Made by a program: the position numbers and the translations under genes
Notes under the pieces: generated by a model
The model's input: only the letters and a program-made list of their open reading frames with translations
Databases searched by the model: none
Told to the model about the DNA's origin: nothing
Part shown: positions 5,523-64,000 of the stretch, in pieces
How positions within the stretch are numbered: position 1 is the stretch's first letter
How the letters are laid out: each line of letters begins with the position of its first letter
From: Candidatus Saccharimonadota bacterium
Lineage (GTDB): Bacteria > Patescibacteriota > Saccharimonadia > Saccharimonadales > JACOTW01
Assembly: GCA_016178135.1 (NCBI GenBank)
Contig: JACOTW010000002.1
Span: 13,043-77,042, forward strand
Direction: 5' to 3'
DNA: 64,000 nt

Positions 5523-6461
5523 CTATAGCCCCCGCAAAACAAATTCGTGGGTTTTTGAAGCAATGATCTTTGAGCCAAAAACTGACTTTTCCGAGAGAGA
5601 CATATCCTTAGATACGTTGAACGAGGAAAGGCGGTTTTGGGCCAAAGAGGGTGACTCGAAAAGTCGGGAATTTGTTTTGCGGGGACTATATAACTGTAAC
5701 CCAAAAAACTCCTCAAGTGTTTCAAGGTTGTTTCTATATATTTCGCGTGATAGCTCTGTTCCGACATAACGGAGATGCCATGGTTCATAAGAATAACCAG
5801 TAATTTGCTGCTTATTTTTGGTATAACGGATGATAAAACCGTATTCGTAGGCATTGGCTGTCAGCCATTTGCCTTCCGGTAGGTCCCCAAAACATGATTC
5901 TAATTGACATTTCCTATCCGAACGACCAAGGTCAACCGCTAGACCAGTTTGATGTTCGCTGTGTCCAGGTTGCGCACTATAAGTATCGGCCTTAATCTGA
6001 CCATCTTGCTTAACATAGCCATTATATACTGAAGATTGAGTCGTGTAGCTACGATATCCGCTGACCAACATGAGCGAATATCCTGATTGTTTGGCTCCTA
6101 CAACAAGCTTGGAAAGTGCGTCGTTCATAACGTTGCTGATATGCATGTTTTCGCTGTTGGTAACTTCGCTTAGTAGTATGTTTGGAGTAACAAGATTGGT
6201 TGGTATGTAGGTTCTAGGTAGTGGACGTTGTTTGTTGACGACTACCCAAGGGCTTGCCGGATCAGTCGTAGAATATTTTGCTTTATCAATAACAGGAACG
6301 GCTGATTGAACTTCTGGGTTATTGGCTTTTACTATGGTTTGGGTAGGTGACTTAGGGGCATTGTCGTGTAGCACTAACCAGTAAAAGCTGATTCCAAATA
6401 ATAAGATTGCCAGAACGATAATGACTAGTTTTTTATTCAGGAAAAAATTTCTTCTAAGCAT
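5523..6461 (-). CDS. VanY/M15B D-alanyl-D-alanine carboxypeptidase with an element-derived C-terminal extension
   Basis: SGYRSY...SEHQTGLAVDL...EPWHLRYVG are the zinc-peptidase motifs, and an N-terminal TM anchor is present. The last ~55 codons (5526-5690) are read out of a type A palindromic element. Confidence 0.8.
   Translation of the reverse strand: MLRRNFFLNKKLVIIVLAILLFGISFYWLVLHDNAPKSPTQTIVKANNPEVQSAVPVIDKAKYSTTDPASPWVVVNKQRPLPRTYIPTNLVTPNILLSEVTNSENMHISNVMNDALSKLVVGAKQSGYSLMLVSGYRSYTTQSSVYNGYVKQDGQIKADTYSAQPGHSEHQTGLAVDLGRSDRKCQLESCFGDLPEGKWLTANAYEYGFIIRYTKNKQQITGYSYEPWHLRYVGTELSREIYRNNLETLEEFFGLQLYSPRKTNSRLFESPSLAQNRLSSFNVSKDMSLSEKSVFGSKIIASKTHEFVLRGL
5524..5690. repeat. Type A palindromic element, copy 1 (termini TATAGCCCCCGCAAAACAAATTC / GAATTTGTTTTGCGGGGACTATA)
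   Basis: Terminal inverted repeats of about 23 bp. A second full copy lies at 44905-45071 and a solo right end at 63238-63262. Confidence 0.85.
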
Positions 6462-6495: not shown

Positions 6496-6668
6496 CGATT
6501 GATATATAGGACTTACGTACTTTCTCACCACACCAGACTTAACCTGTGTGGTTACAAACGGCCCATGTTCTCTCGGTGTAGCTATGGCTACCCCTCCAGA
6601 ACCTGAACCGTTTTCGCTCACCCAGCTACACTCTGGCATTGGTAAGAAAGTGCGTAAGTCCTATATAC
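6496..6668. repeat. Long hairpin element, variant with GGACTTACG termini
   Basis: TATATAGGACTTACGTACTTTCTCACC at 6496 pairs with GGTAAGAAAGTGCGTAAGTCCTATATA ending at 6667. It abuts the next type B copy. Confidence 0.6.
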
Positions 6669-6821
6669 TGAACCGATCGCAAAATCCCTCATCCCCATAA
6701 TGAATCAGCTCGAGCAAAAGCGGTTTTCTATGAAGAAGATGTATCCAGTAGAGAGGAAAAACTGTTTGTGGCCACGGTTAGTCGGTCTGGGGATGAGGGA
6801 TTTTGCGATCGGTCCAGTATA
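6666..6821 (+). repeat. Type B palindromic element, copy 1
   Basis: Runs TACTGAACCGATCGCAAAATCC...GGATTTTGCGATCGGTCCAGTAT. The internal sequence is shared with the copies at 52132, 53235 and 56671. It ends 10 nt before the orn ATG. Confidence 0.85.
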
Positions 6822-8802: not shown

Positions 8803-8915
8803 TACTGCACTTACGCAAAATCCCCTCATCCCCAGGCCGAATTCTATCGGCTACAAACTGTTTTCGCTCGAGCTGATTCGCTCTGAGAACGAGGGGTTTT
8901 GCGATAGGTCCAGTA
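8803..8915 (-). repeat. Type B palindromic element, copy 2 (short, centre deleted)
   Basis: Runs TACTGCACTTACGCAAAATCCCCTCATCCCCA...GGGGTTTTGCGATAGGTCCAGTA. Its right end supplies TATAAT 8 nt before the dnaG ATG. Confidence 0.8.
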
Positions 8916-32364: not shown

Positions 32365-32646
32365 ATGCCACCCAAACTAGATGCAGATTTTGCTAGAAGT
32401 GTTGAGCTTTCAATAAACCCGTTAACACGCCATCATCAGGTGGATAAATTACTGCATGATCCTGAAATTGTAGGCAACGATATAAATTTTTTATTCAATC
32501 CAGATAGTCTGGTAACCACTAATCCAGAGACTGTAGTCGCATTGGACAGGAGTGTACTATTGTACCCCTGGCTTGGGAGGAATGCCTTGAAGCAGGCTGC
32601 ACTATGGATTCAATATTTAACATCGGAAGGATTAATTCATGGCTAA
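32365..32646 (+). CDS. hypothetical protein between rpsF and rpsR
   Basis: 93 aa. It starts 3 nt after the rpsF stop and overlaps the rpsR start by 8 nt. No family recognised. Confidence 0.35.
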   Translation: MPPKLDADFARSVELSINPLTRHHQVDKLLHDPEIVGNDINFLFNPDSLVTTNPETVVALDRSVLLYPWLGRNALKQAALWIQYLTSEGLIHG

Positions 32647-33544: not shown

Positions 33545-34108
33545 ATGGCATTTGGACCAACTGATCTTAAAAAAGGGCAGGTGTTTCAGTTGGATAATAT
33601 TCCGTATCGAGTGGTTGAGTACGGTCAAAAGGTGATGGGTCGTGGGGGCTCAATTGTAAACGTCAAAATAAAGAGTCTACTGAATGGTAAAGTTCTGGAT
33701 AAAACTTTCAAGGGAAATGAATCCATTGAACCCGCTGATGTAACTAATAAAAATGTGCAATATCTCTACAGCGATGCCAATTCATTTTTCTTTATGGATG
33801 AACAAACTTACGAGCAATTTGAACTACCAGTTACTGATATGTTAGATCAAACAGGTTACCTGAAAGAAGGTGATCGTGTTTTGGTTCAGCTGTTTAATGA
33901 TAGGGTTATAAATATTGAATTACCCAAAAATGTTCCCCTCAAGGTAACTTATGCTGAAACCGCGGTCAAAGGCGACACAAGCTCAGCAATAACAAAAGAC
34001 GCGACCGTAGAGACGGGCATTATTGTCAAAGTACCTGCGTTTGTAAAAGTTGGCGATATTATTTCGGTTGATACCGCGACTGGGACGTACCGTGAGCGTG
34101 TCAAATAA
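33545..34108 (+). CDS. efp: elongation factor P
   Basis: 187 aa. DLKKGQVFQLDNIPYRVVEY...GRGGSIVNVKIKSLLNGK is present, with an AAGGAG Shine-Dalgarno upstream. Confidence 0.9.
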   Translation: MAFGPTDLKKGQVFQLDNIPYRVVEYGQKVMGRGGSIVNVKIKSLLNGKVLDKTFKGNESIEPADVTNKNVQYLYSDANSFFFMDEQTYEQFELPVTDMLDQTGYLKEGDRVLVQLFNDRVINIELPKNVPLKVTYAETAVKGDTSSAITKDATVETGIIVKVPAFVKVGDIISVDTATGTYRERVK

Positions 34109-34988
34109 GTATCGCCTAGACAAAGAATTACTGCGTCGAGGATTAGTTGTATCTAGGTCGCAAGCTGAGGATATTATTCGCAGGGGTTTTGTAAGCGTAG
34201 CTGGTATAAGCGTTACCAAACCCGGCTTGTTGGTATCAGAAAATGTACAAATCGTCATAAAATCACGTGTTAGTTTTGTATCACGAGCGGGCGAAAAACT
34301 TCATTCAGTCTTAGATATCCTTCAACTGGATTTGTCGGACAAAGTTGTGTTGGATGTCGGTTCGTCAACTGGCGGTTTTACCGAACTGGCTTTACGCATG
34401 GGGGCAAAAAAAGTTATTGCGGTAGATGTTGGAACCAATCAAATGCATCCCAGCTTGCGTAATGATCCCCGAATTGAACTTCACGAAAAAACCGACATCC
34501 GCAATTATGTGAAAGGATCGACCACTCACATAGACGTTGTTCTGATTGATGTTAGTTTTATATCATTGCGTCAAATATTACCGTACTGCGCTACACTGAT
34601 TGATCGCAATTCGGTGATCGTGGCTATGGCAAAACCGCAGTTTGAGGCTAGACTGGACTTACCCAAAGCTCCCCCATCCCCAGACCAACTAATCTCAAGC
34701 GGTAGCGGTCTGCCTTCTATCAATGTAGCTAAGGCTACCTCTCCTTCAGTCAAACCACTATCAACTCGAGCTGATTTGCCCTGGGAACGGGCGATTTTGC
34801 GTAAGTCCAGTAGAGACATAGTTAAACACAAGGGAGTAATAAAGAACGATAAAATGCGTAGGGAGATACTAAAACACCTTGAAGATAGCATACAAAATTT
34901 GTTCATTATTATCGACAAGGCTGATTCTGGAGTTGCCGGCGCTCGCGGCAATAGGGAGCGCTTTTATTTGTTACGAAAAGCCGGGTAG
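34098..34988 (+). CDS. tlyA: TlyA-like S4-domain rRNA 2'-O-methyltransferase carrying an in-frame type B element
   Basis: The S4 domain reads RLDKELLRRGLVVSRSQAEDIIRRGFVSV. The FtsJ-like AdoMet motif is VLDVGSSTGGFTE, followed by KPQFEA. The GTG start overlaps the efp stop. About 54 codons (34652-34812) are element-derived. Confidence 0.8.
   Translation: MSNKYRLDKELLRRGLVVSRSQAEDIIRRGFVSVAGISVTKPGLLVSENVQIVIKSRVSFVSRAGEKLHSVLDILQLDLSDKVVLDVGSSTGGFTELALRMGAKKVIAVDVGTNQMHPSLRNDPRIELHEKTDIRNYVKGSTTHIDVVLIDVSFISLRQILPYCATLIDRNSVIVAMAKPQFEARLDLPKAPPSPDQLISSGSGLPSINVAKATSPSVKPLSTRADLPWERAILRKSSRDIVKHKGVIKNDKMRREILKHLEDSIQNLFIIIDKADSGVAGARGNRERFYLLRKAG
34652..34812 (-). repeat. Type B palindromic element, copy 3 (inside tlyA, in frame)
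   Basis: Runs ACTGGACTTACCCAAAGCTCCCCCATCCCCAGACC...GGGCGATTTTGCGTAAGTCCAGTA. It translates as LDLPKAPPSPDQ...WERAILRKSS without a stop. Confidence 0.9.
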
Positions 34989-38203: not shown

Positions 38204-38366
38204 TACTGGACTTACGCAAAACTCCCCCATCCCCAGACCAACTAATCCCAAGCGGTAGCGGTCTGTCTTCTCTCGATGTAGCTAAGGCTACCTCTCCTTC
38301 AGTCAAACCACTCCCAACTCGAGCTGATTTAGCCTGGGAACGGGCAATTTTGCGACAGGTCCAGTA
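38204..38366 (-). repeat. Type B palindromic element, copy 4
   Basis: Runs TACTGGACTTACGCAAAACTCCCCCATCCCCAGACC...GGGCAATTTTGCGACAGGTCCAGTA. Confidence 0.9.
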
Positions 38367-43816: not shown

Positions 43817-44857
43817 ATGAGTATATTGAGTGGGGTATCTGAATTTTTCGGTCTAGATATGGGGACTACAGCTATTCGCTTGGTAGAACTTAGGGGTAGC
43901 GGGCCAGTTAAAGCTCTAGCTAAATACGCCTATGTGCCCGTTGACAGCAAGCTTGCTTTGAGCGATTCCAAGGCCGATCAATTACGCCTAGTGAAAATTA
44001 TTAATGATCTTATCACCGAAGCACGGGTATTGACCAAAAATGTGGCCGTTGGTATTCCGTCGCAACGAGTGTTTACTACGGTTGTAGATATTGAGCGCTT
44101 GTCGCCTGCCGAGCTGGCTAAAAGTCTGAAATACCAAGCCGACGCCTTGATTCCGACGCCATTGTCAGAATCTAAGCTTGACTGGTCACTACTAGGGGAT
44201 TCACCTAAGGATAAAACAAAGATGGAAGTCCTGCTCTCTAGTGTTACTAATGAATTTGTAGAAAATCGTCTGGATTTGCTGGAATCGATTGGTCTCAATG
44301 TTATTGCGTTCGAGCCGGATAATTTGGCACTTAGCCGCGCATTGATCGCTCCAGACGCAGTTATGCCACAAATGGTGCTTGATATTGGTAGCAAGAGCAC
44401 CGATCTGGTTATTGTTATGAATGGAGCGCCAAGATTGACTAGATCTATTCCGACAGGGTCAGAAGCTATCATTAAAGCCGCAGTACAGAACCTGAATATT
44501 GACGAAAAACAGGCCGGAGAATTTGTTTTTAAATTCGGTCTTTCTAAGGACAAATTAGAAGGGCAAATTGCCCAGGCTATCTTAAGTACGGTTGATTTGC
44601 TAGTGTTAGAAATCGATAAATCCATAAAGTTCTTCCAGGCGCGCTATCCGGAAACCAAGGTTGATCGCATTATCGTAACTGGTGGTGCTTCGGCTTTACC
44701 GGAGTTTCCATTGTATATTGCTAATAAGTTTGGCATAAGCGTTGAGATTGGTAATGCTTGGCGTAACATATCTTTTGCTGCTGATCGTCAGAACGAACTA
44801 CTGGCCGTTTCCAGCCATTTTGGTGTGGCGGCGGGGTTAGCGGAGAGGCAAGAATGA
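43817..44857 (+). CDS. pilM: type IV pilus assembly protein PilM (actin-like ATPase fold)
   Basis: The N-terminus is FGLDMGTTAIRLVEL. 346 aa, followed by pilN and pilO. Confidence 0.85.
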   Translation: MSILSGVSEFFGLDMGTTAIRLVELRGSGPVKALAKYAYVPVDSKLALSDSKADQLRLVKIINDLITEARVLTKNVAVGIPSQRVFTTVVDIERLSPAELAKSLKYQADALIPTPLSESKLDWSLLGDSPKDKTKMEVLLSSVTNEFVENRLDLLESIGLNVIAFEPDNLALSRALIAPDAVMPQMVLDIGSKSTDLVIVMNGAPRLTRSIPTGSEAIIKAAVQNLNIDEKQAGEFVFKFGLSKDKLEGQIAQAILSTVDLLVLEIDKSIKFFQARYPETKVDRIIVTGGASALPEFPLYIANKFGISVEIGNAWRNISFAADRQNELLAVSSHFGVAAGLAERQE

Positions 44858-44904
44858 AAAAACGCATAACGACAAAATCTAAATACGCCCAAATGACCGC
44901 TATG

Positions 44905-45071
44905 TATAGCCCCCGCAAAACAAATTCGGGGGTTTTGGAGCCGATGATCTTCGAGTCAAAAATTGGCTTTTCCGAGGGAAGCATATCATTAGATAAGGTG
45001 AGTGAGGAAAGACAGCTTTTGACCGGAGAGGGCGGTTCAAAAAGCCGTGAATTTGTTTTGCGGGGGCTATA
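44905..45071. repeat. Type A palindromic element, copy 2
   Basis: Runs TATAGCCCCCGCAAAACAAATTCGGG...CGTGAATTTGTTTTGCGGGGGCTATA and aligns along its full length with 5524-5690. Confidence 0.9.
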
Positions 45072-45085
45072 TTATGCTGGTACTG

Positions 45086-45247
45086 TACTGGACTTACGCA
45101 AAGCTCCCCCATCCCCAGACCAATTCATCTTGGCTGGTAGCGGTCTGTCTTCTCTCGATGTAGCTAAGGCTACCTCTCCTTCAGATAAAACAGTTTTCGC
45201 TCGAGATAATTCACTCTGGGAACGGACGATTTTGCATAAGTCCAGTG
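45086..45247 (-). repeat. Type B palindromic element, copy 5 (mosaic of subfamilies)
   Basis: Runs TACTGGACTTACGCAAAGCTCCCCCATCCCCAGACC...GGACGATTTTGCATAAGTCCAGTG. It lies 14 bp from the type A copy. Confidence 0.9.
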
Positions 45248-45272
45248 TACTACTGTCATCAGAGGTTATGTC

Positions 45273-45986
45273 ATGATTCAGTTTAACCTCTTACCTGACG
45301 TAAAGCTTGATTATATTAAAGCTAAGCGAATCAAACGCTTTGTAATATTGATTTCTATTACTATTGCCGGAGCACTTCTGGCAATTATGGTATTGCTGTT
45401 TTTGGCTGTCAACGTCTTTCAGAAAGGTCACCTGGATGACTTGAACGTTGATATCAAAAAGTATAGTACAGAACTAAAGAGTACGCAGGATCTAAGCAAA
45501 ATATTAACTATTCAAAATCAACTTAATAAATTGAATAAACACGATAATACGCCTGGACTACATGATAAAAAACCGGTTGCCTCCCGCTTATTTCCGTATT
45601 TGTCGCAGATGCTTCCTGATAAGCTTAGCATTGCAAACCTTGATGTTGACTTTGAAGTACAAACCATGTCTTTCACCGGTGGTGCTGACAGCTTGAGTAC
45701 TATTAATAAATTTGTTGATACCCTTAAGTTTACAACCTACAAAATTGACAAGGAGCCCAATGAGATAAAAGCTTTCTCAAGCGTAGTGTTAACTAATTTT
45801 GGGCGTGATGACGCTGCTGCCACCTATCAGATAGATCTTAAATTCGACCTTCTTATCTTTGATTCATCGAAAGAAATAAGTATCCTGGTACCTAAAATCA
45901 TCACTACTCGTTCTGAAACCGAAAAGCCAGTTGATCTATTTCAGTCGACAGGTAGCGAACAAATTAATAAACAGGTTAACGAGTAA
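45273..45986 (+). CDS. pilN: type IV pilus assembly protein PilN-like
   Basis: IQFNLLPDVK at the N-terminus and a single TM segment are present. Its position after pilM supports the call. Confidence 0.75.
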   Translation: MIQFNLLPDVKLDYIKAKRIKRFVILISITIAGALLAIMVLLFLAVNVFQKGHLDDLNVDIKKYSTELKSTQDLSKILTIQNQLNKLNKHDNTPGLHDKKPVASRLFPYLSQMLPDKLSIANLDVDFEVQTMSFTGGADSLSTINKFVDTLKFTTYKIDKEPNEIKAFSSVVLTNFGRDDAAATYQIDLKFDLLIFDSSKEISILVPKIITTRSETEKPVDLFQSTGSEQINKQVNE

Positions 45987-45989
45987 ATT

Positions 45990-46664
45990 ATGGTTAAACT
46001 TGCTTTTTCTACAAAAAGACTTCAGATCGATAAGGCAAACTCGGCGGTTGTTATAGCAACGGCTGTTGCCGTATTCATTGCTGTGTTTTCGTTGTTCGCA
46101 TCGAAGGCATTGCTTAGTAAACGTTCCTACCAGGGGCGCGTTATAGACGGTAAAGAAAAAGCAGTCAAGCAGTTAAAAGATAATTTAGTTGCTCGTGATG
46201 GCTTGGTGAGTGCCTATAAGCAGTTTGTTGAAGCGCCAACCAACATACTGGGAGGTAACCCTAACGGCACAGGCGAAAAAGATGGCGATAATGCCCGCCT
46301 GATTCTAGATGCCTTGCCAAGTAAGTATGACTATCCAGCTCTAGCCAGTAGTTTAGAAAAAATACTGACTGATAAAAGCTTTGTGTTTAAATCTATTACG
46401 GGTAGCGATGATGAAATTGTTCAACAAAAAAACCCCAGTAGTCCTGAACCTGAAGTAGTTGATATGCCGTTTGAGATAACTGTTGGCAGTACATATAATG
46501 CCGCACCTAGCTTGATATTACTTTTTGAGAACTCCATACGGCCATTTCAGATTCAAAAACTTTCTCTTAGTGGCACCAACGCTGATTTAGCAACCGTTAT
46601 TAAGGCCAAGACTTTCTATCTTCCTGAAAAAAATCTAAACATAGGGACAAAGGTAGTTAAATGA
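45990..46664 (+). CDS. pilO: type IV pilus assembly protein PilO-like
   Basis: A single N-terminal TM segment and a coiled region are present. Position in the pilMNO series supports the call, and there is an ATGA overlap with the next ORF. Confidence 0.6.
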   Translation: MVKLAFSTKRLQIDKANSAVVIATAVAVFIAVFSLFASKALLSKRSYQGRVIDGKEKAVKQLKDNLVARDGLVSAYKQFVEAPTNILGGNPNGTGEKDGDNARLILDALPSKYDYPALASSLEKILTDKSFVFKSITGSDDEIVQQKNPSSPEPEVVDMPFEITVGSTYNAAPSLILLFENSIRPFQIQKLSLSGTNADLATVIKAKTFYLPEKNLNIGTKVVK

Positions 46665-46918
46665 AACAAAAAGACATTATTGTAATCATTGTCGTTACTT
46701 TTATTAGTGTGGTTATTTCTCTGTTATTGTCCACTAAGCTGTTTGATCCGCCTAAAAATCGTACGACGGAAGTCGAGGTTGTTCAGTCAATAACTTCTGA
46801 CTTCTTAACTCCTGACAAAAAATACTTCAATGATAAATCTTTGAACCCAACCAAACTAATCCAAATCGGTGATAGCTCCAACTCACAACCATTTAATAAT
46901 AATCAGACACAGCAGTAG
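46661..46918 (+). CDS. small single-TM pilus-cluster protein
   Basis: 85 aa, with the TM segment IIVIIVVTFISVVISLLLS. It appears translationally coupled to pilO. Confidence 0.45.
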   Translation: MKQKDIIVIIVVTFISVVISLLLSTKLFDPPKNRTTEVEVVQSITSDFLTPDKKYFNDKSLNPTKLIQIGDSSNSQPFNNNQTQQ

Positions 46919-46932
46919 ATTGAAGCGGCGAT

Positions 46933-48741
46933 ATGAGCATCTTATCGGCTGCTATCCAGAAACAGGTTGAAGAAAAGCTTATTAATGACGGTTTGATTAC
47001 CAAGGCCAAATTTAATGACCTTAAAGCCAAAGCGGATGCTGATCATGTACCCGTACTGGGCCTCCTGATTAAGGATGGACAAGTATCTAACGAAGTGCTG
47101 ACTAAAACAGTATCACACATTACCAAAGTACCTTACGTGAATCTGTCTAATGCCAAGATTGACCAAAATATTCTGCAACTTTTGCCACAAGCTCTAGCCG
47201 AGCGTTATATGTCCGTGCCACTCGGGGAAATGCATAATCGTTTAGTGGTAGCCATGCTGGATGCCGGTAATGTTCAGGCTGTGGATTTTCTGTCCAATAA
47301 GATTGGTCGTCCGCTCAAGGTTTATGCTGCCAGCGAAGAAGGCATCAGAAATGTTATAAAACAATATAACTTTTCACTAGACAAGGGAATACCAGGCTCC
47401 TTGACTAAACAGGCAGATACCGAAGCGCAAGCTCTGGAATTAGAAAAATCTAATCTTAAGCCGACTGATAAAACCCAAAATATTAAAGATATTGTTCAGG
47501 ATTCTCCGATTAGTAAGGCTTTGACGACTATTCTTGAGTATTCTGCCAATAACCGAGCTAGTGATATTCATATTGAACCGCTGGAAAAAGAATTGAGAAT
47601 TCGTTGCCGTATCGATGGAGTGCTGCGTGAAATTATGAAGTTACCCAAAAGCACTGAACCGGCTTTGATATCTCGCATCAAGATTCTATCTAATTTAAAA
47701 ATTGACGAACACCGCATTCCTCAAGATGGTACTTTTACCGTTCAGGTGGGAGAAAAGAGCATTGATCTGCGTATAGCGATTTCTCCGGTAGTGTGGGGTG
47801 AGCAGGTAGTTATAAGATTGCTTGATAAGTCTGGGACCAGTCTCAAGCTCGAGGATATGGGATATGCTGGACGAGCATTACATACTATCCGTAAAGGGTT
47901 AAAAGAGTCTAATGGTTTGATTTTGACTTCTGGGCCGACTGGTTCCGGCAAATCTACCTCTATGTACGCGCTTATTCAGGAGATAAAAAACGACAGCATT
48001 AATATTGTTACGCTGGAAGATCCGGTTGAGTATAAGGTAGATGGGGTTAATCAGATACAGGTTAACAGCGATGTTGGTCTGACATTTGCCGCGGGTTTGC
48101 GCTCTATACTGCGTCAAGACCCTAATGTTGTCATGGTCGGGGAAATTCGTGATAAAGAAACTGCTACTCTGGCTGTCCAAGCGGCCCTTACTGGGCACTT
48201 GGTGTTTTCAACCCTGCATACCAATTCAGCTGCTGGTATTTTGCCACGTTTGCTGGATATGGGCATTGAGCCATTCTTGATTGCTAGCACAGTCCATACG
48301 GTTATTGGTCAGCGTTTAGTCCGGCGTATTGCCGGAGAAGACAAAGAAACTCGCCAATCTGACAAGCCGGAAACAGAAGCCATTCGCCAAACAGTCGATC
48401 ATATATTACCGGAAAAATCAGGAGACGTTAAGGCGGTGGCCATAGATCTTGGCTACGAGGACTTGCCGTTGAGGGGGCAAAACGCTTATACTTTATATCA
48501 GGGCAAAGATAGTCCCGATACGCCCGGCGGTTATAAGGGAAGAATGGGGCTGTATGAGGTCTTTGAGATAACGGACACGATTCAAGATCTGATTCTCAAA
48601 CGATCTACCAGTAGTGAGATCCAAAAAGCCGCCCAAGCCCAGGGTATGGTAACTATGCGGGAAGATGGATACCTCAAGGCTCTTGTCGGTCAAACGACAA
48701 TTGCCGAAGTTAATCGGGTGGCTTCTGTCGATAGCGCGTAA
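46933..48741 (+). CDS. pilB: type IV pilus assembly ATPase PilB (GspE family)
   Basis: An N-terminal T2SE_N-type domain is present. Walker A is GPTGSGKST, with an Asp box, Walker B (VVMVGEIRD) and a His box (TGHLVFSTLHTN). Confidence 0.9.
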   Translation: MSILSAAIQKQVEEKLINDGLITKAKFNDLKAKADADHVPVLGLLIKDGQVSNEVLTKTVSHITKVPYVNLSNAKIDQNILQLLPQALAERYMSVPLGEMHNRLVVAMLDAGNVQAVDFLSNKIGRPLKVYAASEEGIRNVIKQYNFSLDKGIPGSLTKQADTEAQALELEKSNLKPTDKTQNIKDIVQDSPISKALTTILEYSANNRASDIHIEPLEKELRIRCRIDGVLREIMKLPKSTEPALISRIKILSNLKIDEHRIPQDGTFTVQVGEKSIDLRIAISPVVWGEQVVIRLLDKSGTSLKLEDMGYAGRALHTIRKGLKESNGLILTSGPTGSGKSTSMYALIQEIKNDSINIVTLEDPVEYKVDGVNQIQVNSDVGLTFAAGLRSILRQDPNVVMVGEIRDKETATLAVQAALTGHLVFSTLHTNSAAGILPRLLDMGIEPFLIASTVHTVIGQRLVRRIAGEDKETRQSDKPETEAIRQTVDHILPEKSGDVKAVAIDLGYEDLPLRGQNAYTLYQGKDSPDTPGGYKGRMGLYEVFEITDTIQDLILKRSTSSEIQKAAQAQGMVTMREDGYLKALVGQTTIAEVNRVASVDSA

Positions 48742-48764
48742 AACTAATAAGGATGGGAAATTAT

Positions 48765-49832
48765 ATGCAGGGACAACCAAGAATCGAAGTACTACTGGAA
48801 GAAGTCATCAAGCGTAAGGCTTCTGATTTGCACTTGCAAGTTGGATTGCCGCCTATGTTGCGCGTTGATGGGGCTTTAATAGCGGTAACTGGATCAGATG
48901 TATTAGATGAAGAAGGGGTTGAATTATTAATTTTTGCCGTACTGGATGAAGACCAGAAACAGATTCTATTGAAAGATAAAGAGTTTGATTTTAGTTTTGC
49001 TTTTGGTGATCTTGGTCGTTTTCGAGTAAACGCCTTCCATGAACGCGGCAATCTTGCGGCCGCCTTGCGCCTTATTCCGAATGAAATTTTAACTATCGAA
49101 CAACTTGGGCTACCACCAGTTGTCAATAAGTTTGCTGATTATCCGCGTGGCTTGGTGCTGATTACTGGGCCGACCGGTTCCGGCAAATCTACCACACTGG
49201 CCGCCTTAATACACAAGATTAATACAGAGCGAGCCGCGCATATTATCACCATTGAAGACCCAATTGAGTTTACCCATAAATATAGTAAATCCGTGATCGT
49301 ACAAAGAGAAGTGCACTATGATACCTATTCTTTTTCTGCCGCTTTGAGGAGTAGTTTGCGCGAAGATCCGGATGTTGTGATGATTGGTGAAATGCGCGAT
49401 CTAGAAACTATAGCCGCGGCTATTACGATTGCCGAAACTGGACATCTGGTCTTTGCCACTTTGCACACCAACTCTGCCGCTCAAAGCATTGACCGTATGA
49501 TTGACGTTTTTCCACCACATCAACAGCCCCAGATTCGTGCCCAATTGTCTAATATTCTGATGGTTATCTGTTCACAGCGTCTAGTGCCAGCCATAGGTGG
49601 TGGTCGATTAGCGGCTGCCGAAATTCTTATTGCTACTCCGGCTGTGCGTAATATTATTCGAGAAGGCAAGAGCCATCAACTTGAGGCAGTGATCCAAACC
49701 GGCGCGGAACACGGCATGCAATCCATGGACAAGACGCTGGCCAACATGATTCATAATGGTAGCATTAGTTATGAAGAAGCTCGCATGGTTGCTGTAGACT
49801 TAAAAGAACTTGATCGTTTAATGAGGGGCTAA
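48765..49832 (+). CDS. pilT: twitching motility ATPase PilT
   Basis: ASDLHLQVGLPPMLRVDG, GPTGSGKSTT and ETGHLVFATLHTNSA are present. About 355 aa. Confidence 0.9.
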   Translation: MQGQPRIEVLLEEVIKRKASDLHLQVGLPPMLRVDGALIAVTGSDVLDEEGVELLIFAVLDEDQKQILLKDKEFDFSFAFGDLGRFRVNAFHERGNLAAALRLIPNEILTIEQLGLPPVVNKFADYPRGLVLITGPTGSGKSTTLAALIHKINTERAAHIITIEDPIEFTHKYSKSVIVQREVHYDTYSFSAALRSSLREDPDVVMIGEMRDLETIAAAITIAETGHLVFATLHTNSAAQSIDRMIDVFPPHQQPQIRAQLSNILMVICSQRLVPAIGGGRLAAAEILIATPAVRNIIREGKSHQLEAVIQTGAEHGMQSMDKTLANMIHNGSISYEEARMVAVDLKELDRLMRG

Positions 49833-49842
49833 AAAATGAGTA

Positions 49843-50040
49843 TACTGGACTTACGCAAAATCACCCGTTCCCAGGCTAAACTGGACTTACGCAAAATCGT
49901 CCGTTCCCAGAGTGAATTATTTCGAGCGAAAACTGTTTTATCTGAAGGAGAGGTAGCCTTAGCTACATCGAAAGAAGGCAGACCGCTACCAGCCGAGATG
50001 AATTGGTCTTGGGATGGGGGAGCTTTGCGTAAGTCCAGTA
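49843..50040 (+). repeat. Type B palindromic element, copy 6 (duplicated left terminus, mosaic)
   Basis: TACTGGACTTACGCAAAATCACCCGTTCCCAGGCTAAAC is followed at once by a second TGGACTTACGCAAAATCGTCCGTTCCCAG..., and the copy ends ...GAGCTTTGCGTAAGTCCAGTA. Confidence 0.9.
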
Positions 50041-50086
50041 TACAATTAGTACAATCCATGATTAGCCGGCATATTGGAGCTTCGGT

Positions 50087-51307: not shown

Positions 51308-51490
51308 ACCTCTTTTGTAATCATCAGCTCACTTCTGAAACTCGCGATATTTTTTAACTACCCGGAGAGTTATTCACAGGTTCTTAGGTGTTTTAGCTAT
51401 AAAGTTAGAAAAATGCTTGTGCTTTTTGAAAAAAGTTCGTAAAATTAGGCTAGTAATATTAATAATCATATTCTAAGGGGGCATTTGTTT

Positions 51491-51955: not shown

Positions 51956-51977
51956 ATCTTAGCCCGCGATAATATAA

Positions 51978-52010: not shown

Positions 52011-52052
52011 TGCCTAAACCGTACATATAAATATATGTTAATATAACTTCTA

Positions 52053-53042
52053 ATGATTAACGGTATAATTATAGTTTTTGTTGGATTGGTTTTGGGTAGT
52101 TTTGTCAACGCGTTGGTTTGGCGGCTACATCTACTGGCCTTACGCAAAGCTCCCTCATCCCCAGACCGACTAACCTCGGCTACAAACAGTTTTTCCTCTC
52201 TCGATGTACCTTCAGGTACCTCTCCTTCGGATAAAACTGTTTTCGCTCGAGCTGATTCGCTCTGGGAACGAGGGATTTTGCGTAAATCCAGCCTACAATC
52301 CACCAAACATCCAAAAAAACCTGATAATAAAAAATATTCGATTGTTAGTGGGCGTAGCATGTGTCCAGATTGCCGACACCAGTTGGCCTGGTATGATTTG
52401 ATCCCAGTCATTAGTTGGCTAGGTCTTCGGGGGCGCTGTCGCTATTGCCATAGACCAATAAGTTGGCAGTATCCATTAGTGGAAATACTAACTGCTGTAA
52501 CTTTTATCACATCGTATGTTTATTGGCCTTACTCTTGGTCTGCTATTGGTATTACGTTATTTATTGTTTGGATCGTGTCGCTTATCAGTTTCATGGCGCT
52601 TGCCGTCTATGATTTGCGTTGGTTTATTTTGCCGGATAAAATTGTATTTCCTTTAGTCGGACTTGCGGCCATCCAGATCATCATGCGGACTGTATTATAT
52701 GGCGAAATAAGTCCTATACTAGGTGGTCTAATAGGTGTTGTTACGCTTGCTGGTTTATTTTATGCACTGTTCCAATTCTCAAAAGGACAGTGGATTGGTG
52801 GAGGAGATGTAAAGCTGGCAGTAGCTCTAGGTATGTTGGCAGGCGGAGCGGCCGAGAGCGTGTTACTGCTATTTTTAGCATCGTTAATTGGTACTTTGGT
52901 GAGTTTACCACTTCTGTTAAGTAAGAAACTAAAAAAGAATAGCCGGATTCCATTCGGCCCCTTACTTCTTATGGCTACCTTTATCGTCTATATTTTTGGG
53001 TCTGACATCATTAATTGGCTTAAGCTGTATTATTTTTATTAG
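52053..53042 (+). CDS. pilD: prepilin peptidase (A24 family) carrying an in-frame type B element
   Basis: LGSFVNALVWRL...CPDCRHQLAWYDLIPVISWL...CRYC forms a zinc-finger-like region. GGGDVKL is an active-site Asp motif. About 53 codons (52132-52291) are element-derived. Confidence 0.85.
   Translation: MINGIIIVFVGLVLGSFVNALVWRLHLLALRKAPSSPDRLTSATNSFSSLDVPSGTSPSDKTVFARADSLWERGILRKSSLQSTKHPKKPDNKKYSIVSGRSMCPDCRHQLAWYDLIPVISWLGLRGRCRYCHRPISWQYPLVEILTAVTFITSYVYWPYSWSAIGITLFIVWIVSLISFMALAVYDLRWFILPDKIVFPLVGLAAIQIIMRTVLYGEISPILGGLIGVVTLAGLFYALFQFSKGQWIGGGDVKLAVALGMLAGGAAESVLLLFLASLIGTLVSLPLLLSKKLKKNSRIPFGPLLLMATFIVYIFGSDIINWLKLYYFY
52132..52291 (-). repeat. Type B palindromic element, copy 7 (inside pilD, in frame)
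   Basis: Runs TACTGGCCTTACGCAAAGCTCCCTCATCCCCAGACC...GAGGGATTTTGCGTAAATCCAG. It translates as LLALRKAPSSPDRL...WERGILRKSS. Confidence 0.9.
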
Positions 53043-53179: not shown

Positions 53180-54289
53180 ATGGACAGTCATAAACAGCCA
53201 CAAGCATCCCATAGATCTTATAGTCAGGGCAGTTTACTCGACTCACCCAAAATCGCCCGTTCCCGGAGTGAATTATCTCGAGCGAAAACTGTTTTATCTG
53301 AAAGAGGGGTACCTGAAGGTACATCGAGAGAGGAAAAACTGTTTGTAGCCGAGGTTAGTCGATCTGGCGATGGAGGAGTTTTGGGTAAGTCGAGTATAGG
53401 CTATACGATTGTTGAAGTTATGATTTTTCTGGCTATTTCCAGTGCCATACTTGTTAGTGCTTTATTGTTGGTAGGTGGGCAACAACAAAAAACGCAGTTC
53501 ACCCAATCTTTAAGAGATATTGATTCTCATATTCGTGACGTAATGAATGACGTGTCAGCTGGTATTTATAGTAATACTGGCAATTTTCAGTGCCTGGCAG
53601 ATAATGCCGGCAGTGCTCCAGTTATATCGGCTGGTGCCGATAAACAAGGAGCAAATGTCAGCTGTATTTACATCGGTAAGGTTTTACAGTTTGGACCGGC
53701 TTCCAGTCCAGAGGATTTCAATGTGTTTAGTGTTGCCGGCCGTCAATTTCGAGGCGCGCCAATTGCCTCAAAGTTAGTTTCAGATATAACAGAGTCTAAG
53801 CCAGTGCCAATAGCGCCGAATATCGCTCATCTTGCCATGATTGGTCCAGGATTAGATGCTACAGATTACAATAAACTCGATTACGGACTTACTATAAAAG
53901 ACAATAGTGATGGGGCTCATCCGGGCTTAAGTTATGATAATGGTAGTGGCCCGCAGGCCATAGGGGCATTTGGCTTTTTTTCTAACTTTGTTACTTATCC
54001 TGACGGTAGTGCAAGTCCTGAATCAGGTCGACAGTTTACCGATATTTGGGTGATCCCTGCCAGTGCTTATGGCGATGATGCGCGAAATGTTGCCGACGAC
54101 ATCATTGATATTGGTGGTTTAAGCAGTTCAGCTGCTACCTCGTTTAAAAATCCGGCTAAAGGTATTACTTTATGTTTTTTGAGTAGCGGAACAGATCAAT
54201 ATGGCAAAATAACTATCGGTGATAATAATCAAAGACTTGCTACTACGTTGTCAGTAGGTTACAGAGGAGATGGGAGTATTTGTACATGA
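53180..54289 (+). CDS. pilin-like protein (prepilin-type N-terminal domain) with an element-derived leader
   Basis: The mature N-terminus would be G|YTIVEVMIFLAISSAILV. The 72 codons before it are mostly type B element. An alternative TTG start at 53381 is preceded by GGAGGA and would give the leader MGKSSIG. Confidence 0.7.
   Translation: MDSHKQPQASHRSYSQGSLLDSPKIARSRSELSRAKTVLSERGVPEGTSREEKLFVAEVSRSGDGGVLGKSSIGYTIVEVMIFLAISSAILVSALLLVGGQQQKTQFTQSLRDIDSHIRDVMNDVSAGIYSNTGNFQCLADNAGSAPVISAGADKQGANVSCIYIGKVLQFGPASSPEDFNVFSVAGRQFRGAPIASKLVSDITESKPVPIAPNIAHLAMIGPGLDATDYNKLDYGLTIKDNSDGAHPGLSYDNGSGPQAIGAFGFFSNFVTYPDGSASPESGRQFTDIWVIPASAYGDDARNVADDIIDIGGLSSSAATSFKNPAKGITLCFLSSGTDQYGKITIGDNNQRLATTLSVGYRGDGSICT
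53235..53396 (+). repeat. Type B palindromic element, copy 8 (in the 5' part of the pilin-like gene)
   Basis: Runs TACTCGACTCACCCAAAATCGCCCGTTCCCGGAGTG...GATGGAGGAGTTTTGGGTAAGTCGAGTA. Confidence 0.9.
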
Positions 54290-55463: not shown

Positions 55464-56666
55464 ATGAAAAAAATCATTACACTGGACTTACGCAAAATCG
55501 CCCGTTCCCAGGCTAAATCAGCTCGAGTTGGGAGTGGTTTAGCTGAAGGAGAGGTAGCCATAGCTACATCGAGAGAAGACAGACTGCTACCAGCCGAGAT
55601 GAATTGGTCTGGGAATGGGGGAGCTTTGCGTAAGTCCAGTACACTCAAAAAAAACCAGTCTGGTCTAGTTTCTATAATAGTAACCTTGATAATCATGTTG
55701 GTTATGAGCTTAATTGTTATTGGCTTTGCTAAGCTGGTACGGCGTGATCAACGCCAAACGCTTGATAAGCAACTTAATGCCCAGGCGTTTTATGCTGCCG
55801 AAGCAGGCATTAATGACGCTAGGCAAGATATTAGGGTCGCCCTTAATGCTGGAACACCAATTCCAGAGAAATCTACCTGTGCCCCAAACAGTAGTCCGCC
55901 TTTTGATAAGTCAAATATAGTTGATAGCGCACGTAACATTTCTTATACCTGTCTTCTTGTCGATCCGACGCCTGAAAGTCTGGAATACAGCAATATTGAC
56001 ACCAGCACCTCGACAGTTGTGCCGGTAACACTTAAAGATACGACCGACCACATTACGTCAATAACTGTAAGCTGGCAAGCTAAAGATGGAAATACGAATT
56101 TTGCTTGTCCGGGTAGCGGTGTTTATCCGGCTCTGCCCGCGTCTTCTCTATGGGGATGTGGTATAGGTATTATGCGACTAGATCTTGTCCCGACTGATGG
56201 ACATAAGACAAGGGCTGATTATACGAATACGACTTTCAGTAGATTCCTGTATCCTTTACCGGGGTCGCCAGGAGTTAATTCTGTTGGATATGTAGGTAGT
56301 CAAGGTGATTTTGTGCCAGTACAGTGCAGTGCTACGGCTGTACCAAAATACTGTACGTTAACCATAACGGGTTTAAGCACCACCAATTTATATATCCGTC
56401 TGAAGTCAATATATATTGCTTCAAACGCTACGATTACTTGTACGACTGCCTCGGGTGCGGCATGTGAAATGGGCGGGACGCAGATATTGGTTGATTCTAC
56501 AGGGAAAGCCAATGACGTTTTACGTCGTATACAGGTGAGGGTTCCTGATGTAATATCAGGTATATTGCCGGAAGGAGCGCTTGATACCAGTAGCAATATC
56601 TGTAAACGTTACGTTATTGTTAATAACTCTTCTTTGAGCGATCCTGATTCATGCGGTACCAATTAA
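55464..56666 (+). CDS. PilX-like pilus-associated protein with a type B element in frame after codon 6
   Basis: MKKIIT + [LDLRK...LRKSS] + TLKKNQSGLVSIIVTLIIMLVMSLIVIGF. A basic leader followed by QSG and a hydrophobic helix is the PilX-type pseudopilin pattern. Confidence 0.65.
   Translation: MKKIITLDLRKIARSQAKSARVGSGLAEGEVAIATSREDRLLPAEMNWSGNGGALRKSSTLKKNQSGLVSIIVTLIIMLVMSLIVIGFAKLVRRDQRQTLDKQLNAQAFYAAEAGINDARQDIRVALNAGTPIPEKSTCAPNSSPPFDKSNIVDSARNISYTCLLVDPTPESLEYSNIDTSTSTVVPVTLKDTTDHITSITVSWQAKDGNTNFACPGSGVYPALPASSLWGCGIGIMRLDLVPTDGHKTRADYTNTTFSRFLYPLPGSPGVNSVGYVGSQGDFVPVQCSATAVPKYCTLTITGLSTTNLYIRLKSIYIASNATITCTTASGAACEMGGTQILVDSTGKANDVLRRIQVRVPDVISGILPEGALDTSSNICKRYVIVNNSSLSDPDSCGTN
55481..55641 (+). 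repeat. Type B palindromic element, copy 9 (in the PilX-like gene, in frame)
   Basis: Runs ACTGGACTTACGCAAAATCGCCCGTTCCCAGGCTAAATCAGCTCGAG...GGGGGAGCTTTGCGTAAGTCCAGTA. Confidence 0.9.
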
Positions 56667-56670: not shown

Positions 56671-56831
56671 TACTGGACTTACGCAAAATCCCTTGTTCCC
56701 AGGGTGAATCAGCTCGAGCGAAAACAGTTTTGTCTGAAGGAGAGGTACCCAGGAGGTACATCGAGAGAAGAAAAACTGTTTGTAGCCGAGGTTAGTCGGT
56801 CTGGGAACGAGGGATTTTGCGTAAGTCCAGT
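56671..56831 (+). repeat. Type B palindromic element, copy 10
   Basis: Runs TACTGGACTTACGCAAAATCCCTTGTTCCCAGGGTGAATCAGCTCGAGCG...GAGGGATTTTGCGTAAGTCCAGT. Confidence 0.9.
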
Positions 56832-56854: not shown

Positions 56855-59038
56855 CTAGGACTTACGTGAATGAAATTTCTCATGTATAGCTTTTAAGTGT
56901 GGATCGGTAACATGAGTGTATATTTGGGTTGTAGATATATTACTATGACCAAGCATTGCCTGAACTGACCTCAAATCTGCACCGTTCATTAATAAATCTG
57001 TTGCAAATGAATTATGTGAGACGAAGCCATCTGCAATTAAATTTTCGGTTTCTTCTACTGTGAAGTCGTATACAGTTATATCTGTTTTGATTCTATCGGT
57101 CTTATGAACTTTGAGCCATTTTATCTGGTTATTACTACTCGCTAGTCTACGGAGTAGGTTCATTCTGGGGTCTAATATACCAGCACGTTTGAATCGCACA
57201 TAAAAACGCATTGCTGTTTCTTTGGTCGGGAGGACTTGGCCGCTTAAGTATCTAGAGTGGTCCTTTAGTGTTCTTTGATCTTTACGGCGAGTATACAGAC
57301 TTTTACCGGATTCTTTGACTAGTTTGTTTAGGTTAACTAGCATTTCAGTAATTGGTAGTTTTTCACCTACAAAATCCGGACTGATGTTTATCTTTTTGAG
57401 CGTAGGAATTTTGGTGACAAATTTTTGCTGATCTGGCTGGTATAGTATCTGAAGATTGTAGATTGTGAAGGGTTGTTTGACCGTATCTGCAGATTTATGG
57501 GGTAAACGAACCATACGGTTACGTGTATAGAAATGGGCATCAATTCCAAGTCTAAGTAATAACATCTGGATGTCTTTTATAAATTCTTTGTTGGCGCTGA
57601 AGAATTTGGCGTCGCCCTCGTTGCCGTCTGCGTCGTAGAGACCGGCCAAGAAATGGGCAACGGCACTTTCTGATGACCTGAATAATTTGTCTGGTACACG
57701 TAGGCCATGGGTTGTGGTTGCGAGCCCTAGTTTCTTTAGTAGTTTTACAAGAGGCATATGGTAGCAAGTGACATTAAAACTGTTGGAATTAGATGCTGGC
57801 TTGATTTCGACTTTTTTGTTGAATAATTTTTCTATTAAGTCAACGTAGAGGCTCAAGAAAACTTTGTTTTTGTCGTGTAGTATTACGCCGTGCCGACGTT
57901 CGCTGACAGTTCCGTCACCACATATGTAGCCAATAAGTCGCCACATGTCGTTCGACAAATACTGTTTGCTTTGTTGGGATATTTTCTTGACCCCCATAAC
58001 GTAATCACCAGATTTTAGGTCACTTGCTTGGATTTGAGCAAATCCGTCTTTGTCTAGAGTAAATAAACGGTGTTCTGGGGTACACACAAGCTCGTAACCA
58101 CCGGCAGTTAGCTGAATCATTTCTGTAGATTTGTGGGTGCTTGAATGACTAATGGCTTGCGATGTCTGTGTACCTTTATTGAGATGGAGCGACTTTACGC
58201 TGTGTTTGGTTGAATTATAAAGATATTCTGCACTTACTATTCTACGGGGAAGGCTGATTCTAGTATTTGGGTGTAGACAATGGCGGAGCGTGTGGGGGGA
58301 TACGTGTTTGGTGATGCCAGCAAGGACTGCGTAGCGGGCGACTAATCTTTGTACGCTGCGGGCGGTAAGGCGGTAATAATTGCCGCTGACAGTTGATTTT
58401 TTGCTGCCGCTGTATCTGATAAATAGGGGTAGGGAATTGTCTTGGCGTTTGTCCATATATTGTGTAATCCACCAAGCCGATGTATCGCTAATGAATATTG
58501 GGCGGTCTTTTTGGCCTTTGCCCCGAACCATAAACTCGCGTCGTTTGAGATTGATATGATCCTTGTCTAGCCCTACAAGCTCCGAGACGCGCAGTCCCGA
58601 AGAAAATAATAGTTCTAAAATAGCCCGATCTCTTAGTCCTGGTAAGTTATCAATATTTGGTTGAGAAAATAATCGTTCAAGTTCCTCGGGTGCTAAAAAG
58701 GTAACTTGTTTTCTGACAGTTCGAGCCAGTTCAATCTTGTCAGCAGAGATAGCTGGGATATTGCGTTTGGCGCAATACTTCAAGAAGCCTCTTAGCGCTA
58801 TGAGGTGATAATTCTGGGTATTTTTTTGTAATTCATCACTTGTATTTGTGCCCAGTCGATTCAGCCACAATCTCCATTTCCGTATCATTTCCGTATCAAT
58901 ACCAGATATTTTAATATCACCGGTGAAATCTATTAAGCGCGTTAGGTAGTGGTCATAGTTACGGATAGTTTTTTGTGATCTATTTTGTTCGATTTCTAGG
59001 TATTCCAGGAAATCAGTTTTGGCTTTAGAAAATAACAT
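56855..59038 (-). CDS. XerC/XerD-family tyrosine recombinase interrupted by an intein
   Basis: The exteins total 304 aa. The N-terminal SAM-like domain reads [33 protein letters not shown]-type box I ([19 protein letters not shown]) and HVSPHTLRH are present. After the 423-aa insert come [34 protein letters not shown], which include the catalytic Tyr. Confidence 0.88.
57011..58279 (-). mobile_element. Class 1 intein with a LAGLIDADG homing endonuclease (423 aa) inside the recombinase
   Basis: It begins with Cys (CLHPNTRI, block A). Block B is TPEH, and the LAGLIDADG motifs are [11 protein letters not shown] and [11 protein letters not shown]. Blocks F/G are [21 protein letters not shown], followed by the +1 Ser. 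Codon checks: TGT at 58279-58277, AAT at 57013-57011, TCA at 57010-57008. Confidence 0.88.
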
Positions 59039-59122: not shown

Positions 59123-59235
59123 TACTGGACCTGTCGCAAAATCGTCCGTTCCCAGGACGAATCAGCCCGAACGGAAACTGTTTGTAGTCGAGATTATTTA
59201 GTCCGGGATACAGGAGAGCTTTGCGTGAGTCCAGC
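59123..59235 (+). repeat. Type B palindromic element, copy 11 (short)
   Basis: Runs TACTGGACCTGTCGCAAAATCGTCCGTTCCCAGG...GAGAGCTTTGCGTGAGTCCAGCA. It lies in the divergent xer/ndk intergenic region. Confidence 0.8.
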
Positions 59236-61724: not shown

Positions 61725-61886
61725 AAACTCGACTTACGCAAAATCGTCCATTCTCAGACCAACTAACCTCGGCTGATAGCGGTCTGCCTTCTTTCGATGC
61801 AGCTAAGGCTACCTCTCCTTCAGTCAAACCACTATAAACTCGAGCTGATTTGCCCTGGGAACGGGCGATTTTGCATAAGTCCAGTG
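61725..61886 (-). repeat. Type B palindromic element, copy 12
   Basis: Runs AAACTCGACTTACGCAAAATCGTCCATTCTCAGACC...GGGCGATTTTGCATAAGTCCAGTG. Confidence 0.9.
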
Positions 61887-63342: not shown

Positions 63343-63506
63343 TACTGGACCTGTCGCAAAATCGCCCGTTCCCAGGCTAAATCAGCTCGAGTTGGGAGTG
63401 GTTTGGCTGAAGGAGAGGTAGCCGTAGCTACATCGAGAGAAGACAGACCGCTACCAGCCGAGATGAATTGGTCTGGGGATGGGGGAGCTTTGCGACAGGT
63501 CCAGTA
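63343..63506 (+). repeat. Type B palindromic element, copy 13
   Basis: Runs TACTGGACCTGTCGCAAAATCGCCCGTTCCCAGGCTAAATCAGCTCGAG...GGGGGAGCTTTGCGACAGGTCCAGTA. Confidence 0.9.
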
Positions 63507-63892: not shown

Positions 63893-64000
63893 ATTGGACT
63901 TACGCAAAATCGTCCGTTCCCAGGCTAAATCAGCTCGAGTTGGGAGTGGTTTGGCTACATCGAGAGAAGACAGACCGCTACCAGCCGAGATTAGTTGGTC
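63893..64000 (+). repeat. Type B palindromic element, copy 14 (centre deleted, truncated by the window edge)
   Basis: Runs ATTGGACTTACGCAAAATCGTCCGTTCCCAGGCTAAATCAGCTCGAGTTGGGAGTGGTTTGGCTACATCGAGAGAAGACAGACCGC... Confidence 0.85.

Follow-up and report, generated by a model that had tools for sequence, protein, structure and literature searches.

The tlyA gene of the Candidatus Saccharimonadota DNA analyzed here (a stretch of 64,000 nucleotides from contig JACOTW010000002.1, hereafter the window) carries a 158-bp near-palindromic element that is bordered by a 4-bp target-site duplication and that lengthens the encoded protein by 54 residues while leaving the reading frame intact. The explanation that we favor, with a probability of roughly 0.85, is that a transposase acting in trans inserted this element, a miniature inverted-repeat transposable element (MITE), that its family is transparent to coding, and that TlyA is read through the insert.

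A palindromic element is inserted in frame in tlyA

The tlyA gene occupies positions 34098..34988 of the forward strand and encodes 296 residues, insert included, from a GTG start that overlaps the efp stop codon. Its product is 100% identical to P0001, annotated at NCBI as 'TlyA family RNA methyltransferase [Candidatus Saccharibacteria bacterium]', and contains the Pfam N-terminal S4 and FtsJ methyltransferase domains, which fits a TlyA family rRNA 2'-O-methyltransferase. The open reading frame (ORF) reads ...VAMAKPQFEA[RLDLPKAPPSPDQLISSGSGLPSINVAKATSPSVKPLSTRADLPWERAILRKSS]RDIVKHKGVIKND..., with 54 extra residues following KPQFEA, so that the inserted peptide takes the form ...AKPQFEA[R LDLPK...LRKSS]RDIVKHKGVIKND. 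The original prediction, made from the sequence alone, had proposed precisely this host reading, and it is borne out exactly in both sequence and translation. It had also taken the insert for a repeated element within a TlyA-family gene, which agrees with the domains and the identical NCBI entry, as well as with the presence of 10 full copies of the element in the window.

The core of the element, CTGGAC...GTCCAG, spans 34653..34810 (+) and is flanked by the tetranucleotide TAGA on the left (34649..34652, +) and on the right (34811..34814, +), a duplication defined by the sequence itself and by the TNNA pattern found over 52 copies of the family. The AGA of the left duplication encodes an arginine, and that of the right one a second arginine. 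The terminal inverted repeats (TIRs) are ACTGGACTTACCCAAAG on the left (34652..34668, +), with one mismatch to the family consensus, and TTTTGCGTAAGTCCAGT on the right (34795..34811, +). The net insertion is thus 162 bp, consisting of the 158-bp core and one 4-bp TAGA, and corresponds to 54 stop-free codons, in keeping with the expectation that the frame would be preserved. The interval first given for the insert, 34652-34812, had the location right and was off by one or two bases at its boundaries. Likewise, its estimated length of about 54 residues was accurate, but the 'reverse orientation' ascribed to it has no meaning, because the element is near-palindromic and has one open frame in each orientation.

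Comparison with homologues indicates that the host sequence is normally contiguous at this position, as had been supposed for the stretch from KPQFE to KGV. Counted from the lysine of KPQFE to the valine of KGV, 114 of 119 homologues have 15-16 residues and the window protein has 69, and a search of the alignment for orthologues with a native segment of equal length found none. In the closest relative, P0002 from the metagenome-assembled genome (MAG) ERP113451_co1_98, which is 81% identical outside the inserts, the DNA represents the empty site, CCGCAATTTGAAGCAGGG-GATCAGTACAAG, where the window has CCGCAGTTTGAGGC[TAGA-core-]TAGAGACATAGTTAAACACAAG. Consistent with this, phmmer alignments of the window protein to solved TlyA structures end at residue 183/184, and in silico removal of the 54 residues gives an end-to-end alignment with Mycobacterium tuberculosis TlyA (7s0s_B).

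The element is a MITE with IS701-type termini

The element has TIRs of about 17 bp, ACTGGACTTACGCAAAA, and can be folded over its entire length into an imperfect hairpin. In the family alignment, helix 1 is paired to 95.7%, and the terminal and apical stems are kept paired by compensatory changes, with 93.5% of cells paired among 23 copies from six genomes. In these 23 copies, 12 pairs have changed on both sides, compared to 6.7±1.3 in shuffled alignments and 2-4 in slid controls. For one apical pair, 14 copies have G-C, 6 have U-A and 3 have C-G, and no copy has lost the pairing.

To describe the flanks, copies from the window were pooled with those from other genomes and from metagenomes into a non-redundant set of 52. 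T is found at -3 in 49/52 and A at +3 in 49/52, the whole TNNA tetranucleotide is the same on both sides in 29/52, and the central two bases agree in 35/52. This pattern is the signature of a cut-and-paste element with a 4-bp target duplication. Copies of the element are small (158-163 bp), numerous and devoid of a transposase gene, and they possess TIRs and target duplications; the insert in tlyA is therefore a MITE, that is, a non-autonomous TIR transposon.

A hit of the terminus scan pointed to a likely parent family for this MITE in a Parachlamydiaceae MAG (CAWIRV010000017.1), where a 1.08-kb insertion sequence (IS; locus L072, 3541-4616) has ACTGGACTTACGC[G/A]AAATTC at both ends and encodes a single 328-residue ORF that matches the IS701-family transposase model NF049921 of NCBIfam with 352 bits against a cut-off of 250. 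A fragment of about 130 bp directly after this IS (4616-4747) repeats one IS end, and the host belongs to another obligate symbiont lineage. In Trichodesmium, a related transposase (34% identity) is associated with the terminus GGACTTACGCAAA. The outer 16-20 nt of the termini of IS701-family elements of the NF049921 subgroup (ACTGGACTTACGCAAA...) are identical to those of the MITE. According to PMC8024623, which cites Siguier 2015, IS701 members generate target duplications of 4-5 bp, a range that includes the 4 bp observed here. On the other hand, the MITE is 158 bp long and has no transposase gene, whereas the IS measure about 1.1-1.5 kb, and the matching IS are located in the Parachlamydiaceae MAG and, for the related one, in Trichodesmium rather than in a genome of the Candidate Phyla Radiation (CPR). 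Based on the shared termini and the size of the duplication, the element is best described as an IS701-type MITE, and it would have been mobilized in trans by an enzyme of this type. Candidate autonomous partners closer to home were considered and rejected: the solo termini in L060, L018 and L028 have no transposase nearby, and in L055 and L050 the termini that pair over a long range have ordinary genes between them and were put down to chance.

The family is compatible with coding

The lengths of the copies, measured from ACTGG to CCAGT, peak at 160 bp (22 copies) and 163 bp (15 copies), equivalent to net inserts of 162 and 165 bp, and the net insert is divisible by three in 38/51 copies. Copies in the window have one stop-free frame per orientation, namely the 'APPSPDQ...' frame, which is the one used in TlyA, and the 'IARSQ...GDGGALRKSS' frame. 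In the open frame, the termini are read as CTG GAC TTA CGC AAA (LDLRK) inward and TTG CGT AAG TCC AGT (LRKSS) outward. Because the termini are symmetric, both open frames require the same insertion phase, T/NNA/CTG GAC TTA CGC AAA ... TTG CGT AAG TCC AG-T/NNA (slashes mark the limits of the NNA codon). Since the net length is a multiple of three and this phase is free of stops either way, preservation of the frame is a property of the family and not an accident of the copy in tlyA.

Of the 10 full copies found in the window, at least 4 are read in frame inside annotated genes. Besides tlyA, these include the gene for the prepilin peptidase PilD (52053..53042), in which a copy at 52133..52291 (+) lies in frame between the first transmembrane segment (...WRLH) and the Cys motif. 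The 81 profile positions of the Pfam domain A24_N_bact are spread here over 147 residues, and the protein has 329 residues compared to about 275 in its homologues, with a clean 54-residue gap in the alignment. Two further copies are located in frame at the 5' ends of pilin-like genes, upstream of the prepilin cleavage motifs: one at 53237..53395 (-) in the gene 53180..54289, upstream of G/YTIVEVM, and one at 55481..55640 (-) in the PilX_N minor-pilin-like gene 55464..56666, upstream of QSG/LVSII (the slash marks the cleavage site). Just upstream of these two cleavage sites (53380-53400 and 55620-55645), the outer end of the 'IARSQ' orientation reads GGAGGA/GGGGGA-NNN-TTG-CGT-AAG-TCC-AGT. From this arrangement, it appears that in the pilin genes the element may form the leader, or may donate a Shine-Dalgarno (SD)-like GGAGGA together with an in-frame TTG start and a short basic leader.

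Outside the window, a mid-gene copy in frame was found in metagenomic TilS, inside the PP-loop domain, and another metagenomic copy is placed between the two halves of a 530-residue methyltransferase-domain protein. Terminal positions are represented by a response regulator, UDG and PurK, all three with the element at the N-terminus, and by a cupin, with the copies in this group being N- or C-terminal. A 190-bp variant with a 30-bp internal insertion that forms a small hairpin was also observed in frame at the 5' end of a PurK-like gene (L077, 5433-5622). In addition, a HMMER scan of cluster representatives detected the full 53-residue insert peptide in FemAB, TatC, HAD-domain, PIG-L and guanylate kinase proteins, the HAD-domain representative also having a sub-threshold methyltransferase match. 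A word-indexed protein search with a profile of the insert peptide returned mostly short ORFs on intergenic copies; this search was not exhaustive and missed TlyA itself. Copies within genes are flanked by a residue duplicated from the target NNA codon, R..R in TlyA, L..L in PilD, and K..K and Q..Q elsewhere, and the clear mid-gene copies are all in the LDLRK...LRKSS phase.

These features suggest a sequence of events for tlyA. An IS701-family DDE transposase, provided in trans, would most likely have cut the target TAGA with a 4-base stagger, and repair would then have duplicated TAGA at both sides of the 158-bp element. Insertion in the open phase, one of three, would add residues and no stop in either orientation, so that the protein is lengthened rather than truncated, and insertions of this kind in a tolerant loop, linker or leader would be spared by purifying selection. 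In tlyA, the ribosome most likely reads straight through, producing a normal S4 and methyltransferase fold with a largely disordered excursion of 54 residues, situated five residues past the catalytic lysine of KPQFE on the face that binds helix 69 of 23S rRNA.

Consequences of the insertion for TlyA

An AlphaFold2 model built on the 119-sequence alignment predicts the S4 and methyltransferase domains with a predicted local distance difference test (pLDDT) score above 90, and residues ~181-245 at 41-69 as an extruded segment with one short helix. The top Foldseek matches to this model are the TlyA structures 3hp7 and 7s0s_B. The extra surface loop envisaged in the original prediction is therefore also predicted by the model, but the loop emerges on the rRNA-binding face and is perhaps not neutral. 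At the same loop, three homologues have a different, hairpin-encoded insert of about 25 residues and a fourth has an 8-residue insert. Because different inserts occur at the same loop in other homologues, the KPQFE loop appears to be a recurrent permissive site. In the TlyA of P0011 from another of the Saccharibacteria (L111, ~10530-10620), and also in P0023 and P0070, the ~75-bp hairpin insert CTGAGCGGAGTCGAAG...CTTCGACAAGCTCAG encodes VYAERSRST...PSTSSGFR, and it is not repeated within the 20-kb locus. The TlyA of P0002 is extended at another loop by 27 residues, through an in-frame tandem array of the 7-bp unit GAGCAAN with a 21-bp period (L109, 1914-2063; EQRxxSN x3).

Several observations weigh against the explanation given at the outset. 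With regard to the family, the support drawn from the retention of open frames is indicative only: among the ten copies of the window, 19 of 20 orientation-frames are open, compared to ~10.6 expected when the same numbers of substitutions are placed randomly on the consensus, but this simulation counts related copies as independent. A per-variant test for stop codons on the consensus was not significant, with 9 stop-creating variants against ~7 expected, and the stop-creating variants co-occur with neighboring changes. With regard to the transposase, mobilization in trans is deduced from a chlamydial IS, and neither the window nor the CPR loci that were examined yielded an IS701-type transposase, with tblastn using the L072 transposase giving no match in them either. 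With regard to TlyA itself, the insertion is not in a remote loop, given that the arginine of the duplicated AGA aligns with Lys189 of M. tuberculosis TlyA. This lysine is positioned next to A2136 and U2141, at the tip of helix 69 of the 23S rRNA, and the K189A substitution lowers activity modestly (PMC9168844). To judge from this alignment, a 54-residue excursion at a helix-69 contact could impair substrate binding, and because the loop is on the rRNA-binding face at the Lys189-aligned residue, it is just as plausible that the enzyme is altered or weakened as that the loop is neutral. Moreover, the window protein differs at 4/103 highly conserved columns and its closest relative at 0/103. Two of the four deviations, F->L and W->S, are in the helix directly after the insert, and the four would fit mild relaxation or compensation alike.

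Much of this can also be accommodated if the insertion is real but TlyA has been inactivated, leaving a disguised pseudogene that is open because the element is free of stops and little time has passed, in a background where loss of TlyA is tolerated. TlyA is dispensable in other bacteria, and its inactivation in M. tuberculosis leads to resistance to capreomycin. Such a pseudogene would be consistent with an insertion five residues after the catalytic lysine at a helix-69 contact position, with the deviations just described, and with the roughly 3 substitutions that, when the alignment is judged by eye, look private to the tlyA copy and would suggest a fairly recent insertion with little time for decay. 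Against this, the window protein has the family residue at 41/41 columns invariant across the 119 aligned sequences, among them the K, P, Q and E of the KPQFE motif, a match that holds necessarily since the window protein is one of the 119. Its number of deviations at conserved columns is ordinary, ranking 29/119 with a median of 2, in a test that has little power. The inserts in the four homologues argue for a tolerant loop, the effect of K189A is modest, and a Rickettsia guanylate kinase bearing a comparable palindromic element is translated and active (PMC2229807). While a pseudogene is thus a serious prospect, we regard it as somewhat likelier that TlyA is translated and folded and probably retains activity, possibly in altered form.

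It is very unlikely that the mature TlyA lacks the 54 residues because the element is lost on the way to the finished protein, whether spliced out as an intron-like RNA, skipped through hairpin-dependent ribosomal bypass or excised as an intein-like peptide. Bypass elements that depend on a hairpin exist in other systems, and the long hairpin of this element, with its pairing kept by compensatory changes, is what such a process might employ. Removal, however, would favor neither lengths that are multiples of three nor a stop-free phase, and the use of a single phase by the clear mid-gene copies is predicted by translation through the insert and not by removal at the RNA level or by bypass. At its gathering thresholds, Rfam detected four tRNAs only in the window, with no family matching the element and no intron or ribozyme. 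Inteins are characterized by an N-terminal Cys/Ser/Thr nucleophile, a C-terminal His-Asn and a splicing domain of more than ~130 residues; the 54-residue peptide starts with R-L-D and ends with K-S-S, and has neither an N-terminal Cys/Ser nucleophile nor a C-terminal His-Asn.

Least probable of all is that the insert represents a native, lineage-specific loop of TlyA or a repeat pasted into the gene by faulty assembly, since, despite the lineage-specific extra segments in other TlyA homologues and the collapse or misjoining to which repeats may be subject in MAG assemblies, the same 160-bp sequence recurs at 10 or more further sites of the window and also outside it, in other genomes, the TAGA duplication is perfect and removal of the insert restores a loop of normal length, and, for an artefact, the identical protein is recorded on two contigs (128 and 146 kb).

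Copies within and beyond the window

The 10 full copies in the window, identified by blastn and nhmmer, are 159-161 bp long and 71-91% identical to the copy in tlyA. They are accompanied by one internally deleted copy, two adjacent diverged copies, two relatives of ~110 bp and one solo terminus, and the 16-nt terminus ACTGGACTTAYGCAAA has 21 matches in the window at up to 2 mismatches, compared to 0.05 expected from shuffles. The nearest kin of the tlyA copy, with 91% identity, is intergenic at 38205..38364 (+). Further intergenic copies are found at 56672..56831 (-), at 61727..61885 (+; 159 bp, with the frame of one orientation lost) and, near the tRNA cluster, at 63345..63505 (-). The region 49844..50039 (-), between the pilT-like and pilC genes, comprises a full copy (49880-50039) and the adjacent solo terminus (49844-49880). 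The copy with an internal deletion, at 63894..64000 (-), reaches the end of the window. Two diverged copies with the same termini lie back to back at 6509..6818 (6509-6661, +; 6668-6818, -), and the short ~110-bp relatives, also with the same termini, are at 8804..8914 (+) and 59124..59234 (+).

Six of the 10 full copies of this element, which we refer to as type B, fall within ~12 kb (45000-57000) at the type IV pilus locus (pilM, pilB/T, pilC, pilin, pilD and minor pilins), and three of the copies at this locus are in frame, in pilD or the pilin-like genes. One copy, at 45087..45246 (+), adjoins a member of a second repeat family, type A (44905-45072), both being within ORF 44854..45276. This ORF was considered as a host gene with a C-terminal insertion and rejected, as it consists almost wholly of the type A and type B copies and is probably no genuine gene. 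Type A elements measure 168 bp, with TIRs of ~21 bp, TAGCCCCCGCAAAACAAATTC, and open frames; its two copies, at 5524-5691 and 44905-45072, are 82% identical. The former makes up the last ~56 codons of a VanY-like ORF (5523..6461, -), and an NCBI contig ends at approximately window position 5524, where this copy starts.

Full copies of the type B element were found in at least five other Saccharibacteria MAGs, and a CPR2 genome has copies on four contigs with identical termini and a diverged interior. A metagenome scan recovered 36 copies with perfect terminus pairs on 33 DNA stretches. A genome-wide scan with the 16-mer terminus gave 106 matches, mostly due to chance and in unrelated phyla, and nhmmer detected full elements only in Saccharibacteria and CPR2. 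Among viral contigs, there were 26 single terminus matches and no terminus pairs, which were judged to be chance without an nhmmer check. At least 18 annotated 'hypothetical proteins' of 50-93 residues, with HY003_ locus tags that we take to be those of this genome, are ORFs called on copies of the element.

Upstream of tlyA are rpsF, rpsR, ssb and efp, in a gene order common to relatives. A scan of tlyA for terminators and promoters detected nothing above the shuffled expectation. A 93-residue ORF without a Pfam match (32365..32646, +) is located between rpsF and rpsR, which are adjacent in the relative L108. Elsewhere in the window, a Xer-type tyrosine recombinase of 727 residues (56855..59038, -), with Phage_integrase and SAM-like N-terminal domains, is split by an intein with a LAGLIDADG homing endonuclease domain; in contrast to the insert in tlyA, this is a genuine intein and is recognized by Pfam.

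Relation to known elements and implications

The closest parallel is with the Rickettsia palindromic elements (RPEs), which were reportedly described by Ogata et al. in Science in 2000 and Genome Research in 2002, and in Wolbachia in 2005; to our knowledge, no transposase has been assigned to them. Both families are palindromic, about 100-160 bp long and delimited by TIRs, both have intergenic as well as in-frame genic copies that add ~35-55 residues, and both are found in hosts with small genomes. Saccharibacteria are episymbionts of other bacteria, and Rickettsia are intracellular. RPEs are palindromic repeats of 105-146 bp that are fused in frame in many conserved genes (PMC2229807, PMC10969869), and one enzyme bearing an RPE, a guanylate kinase, is the translated and active protein cited above. 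Their target duplication is listed as unknown (PMC2229807), whereas the element described here shows an unambiguous 4-bp TNNA duplication and resembles IS701 in its matching termini, and it occurs in a different phylum, in at least two CPR lineages (Saccharibacteria and CPR2). In a comparison made by description rather than by sequence, the family thus appears to work like RPEs, and we do not class it as one. Correia/NEMIS (107-bp form), ERIC/IRU (127 bp) and YPAL are likewise bacterial MITEs with open frames that have been found inside genes, but these are mostly intergenic and use TA targets, in contrast with the TNNA targets and the in-frame share of full copies seen here. In the literature that we searched, no paper deals with MITEs or in-frame palindromic repeats in connection with Saccharibacteria, Patescibacteria or CPR, although this is no proof that the family is unknown.

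A more far-reaching possibility is that this is a CPR-wide, protein-coding MITE family, spanning Saccharibacteria and CPR2, that has been kept because its copies were exapted, as disordered basic loops for RNA-binding surfaces (at the helix-69 face of TlyA) and as a source of an SD sequence and a TTG start or leader for type IV pilin genes. We consider this unlikely; if true, the family would be a general driver of innovation in proteins and operons in the ultra-small genomes of episymbionts.

For the annotation of CPR genomes, the element calls for caution, given the spurious 'hypothetical proteins' to which it gives rise and the inflated or distorted annotations of TlyA, PilD and pilins, and at least one assembly has a contig end that coincides with the element family. 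For enzymes such as TlyA, the family also provides natural 'insertion-tolerance maps'. More generally, the family would constitute a second, independent system of coding-compatible selfish DNA, again in bacteria with small genomes, and because its target duplications are clean and its IS701-type parent can be identified, it lends itself to studying the ways in which reduced genomes tolerate mobile DNA in essential genes, filter it and perhaps reuse it.

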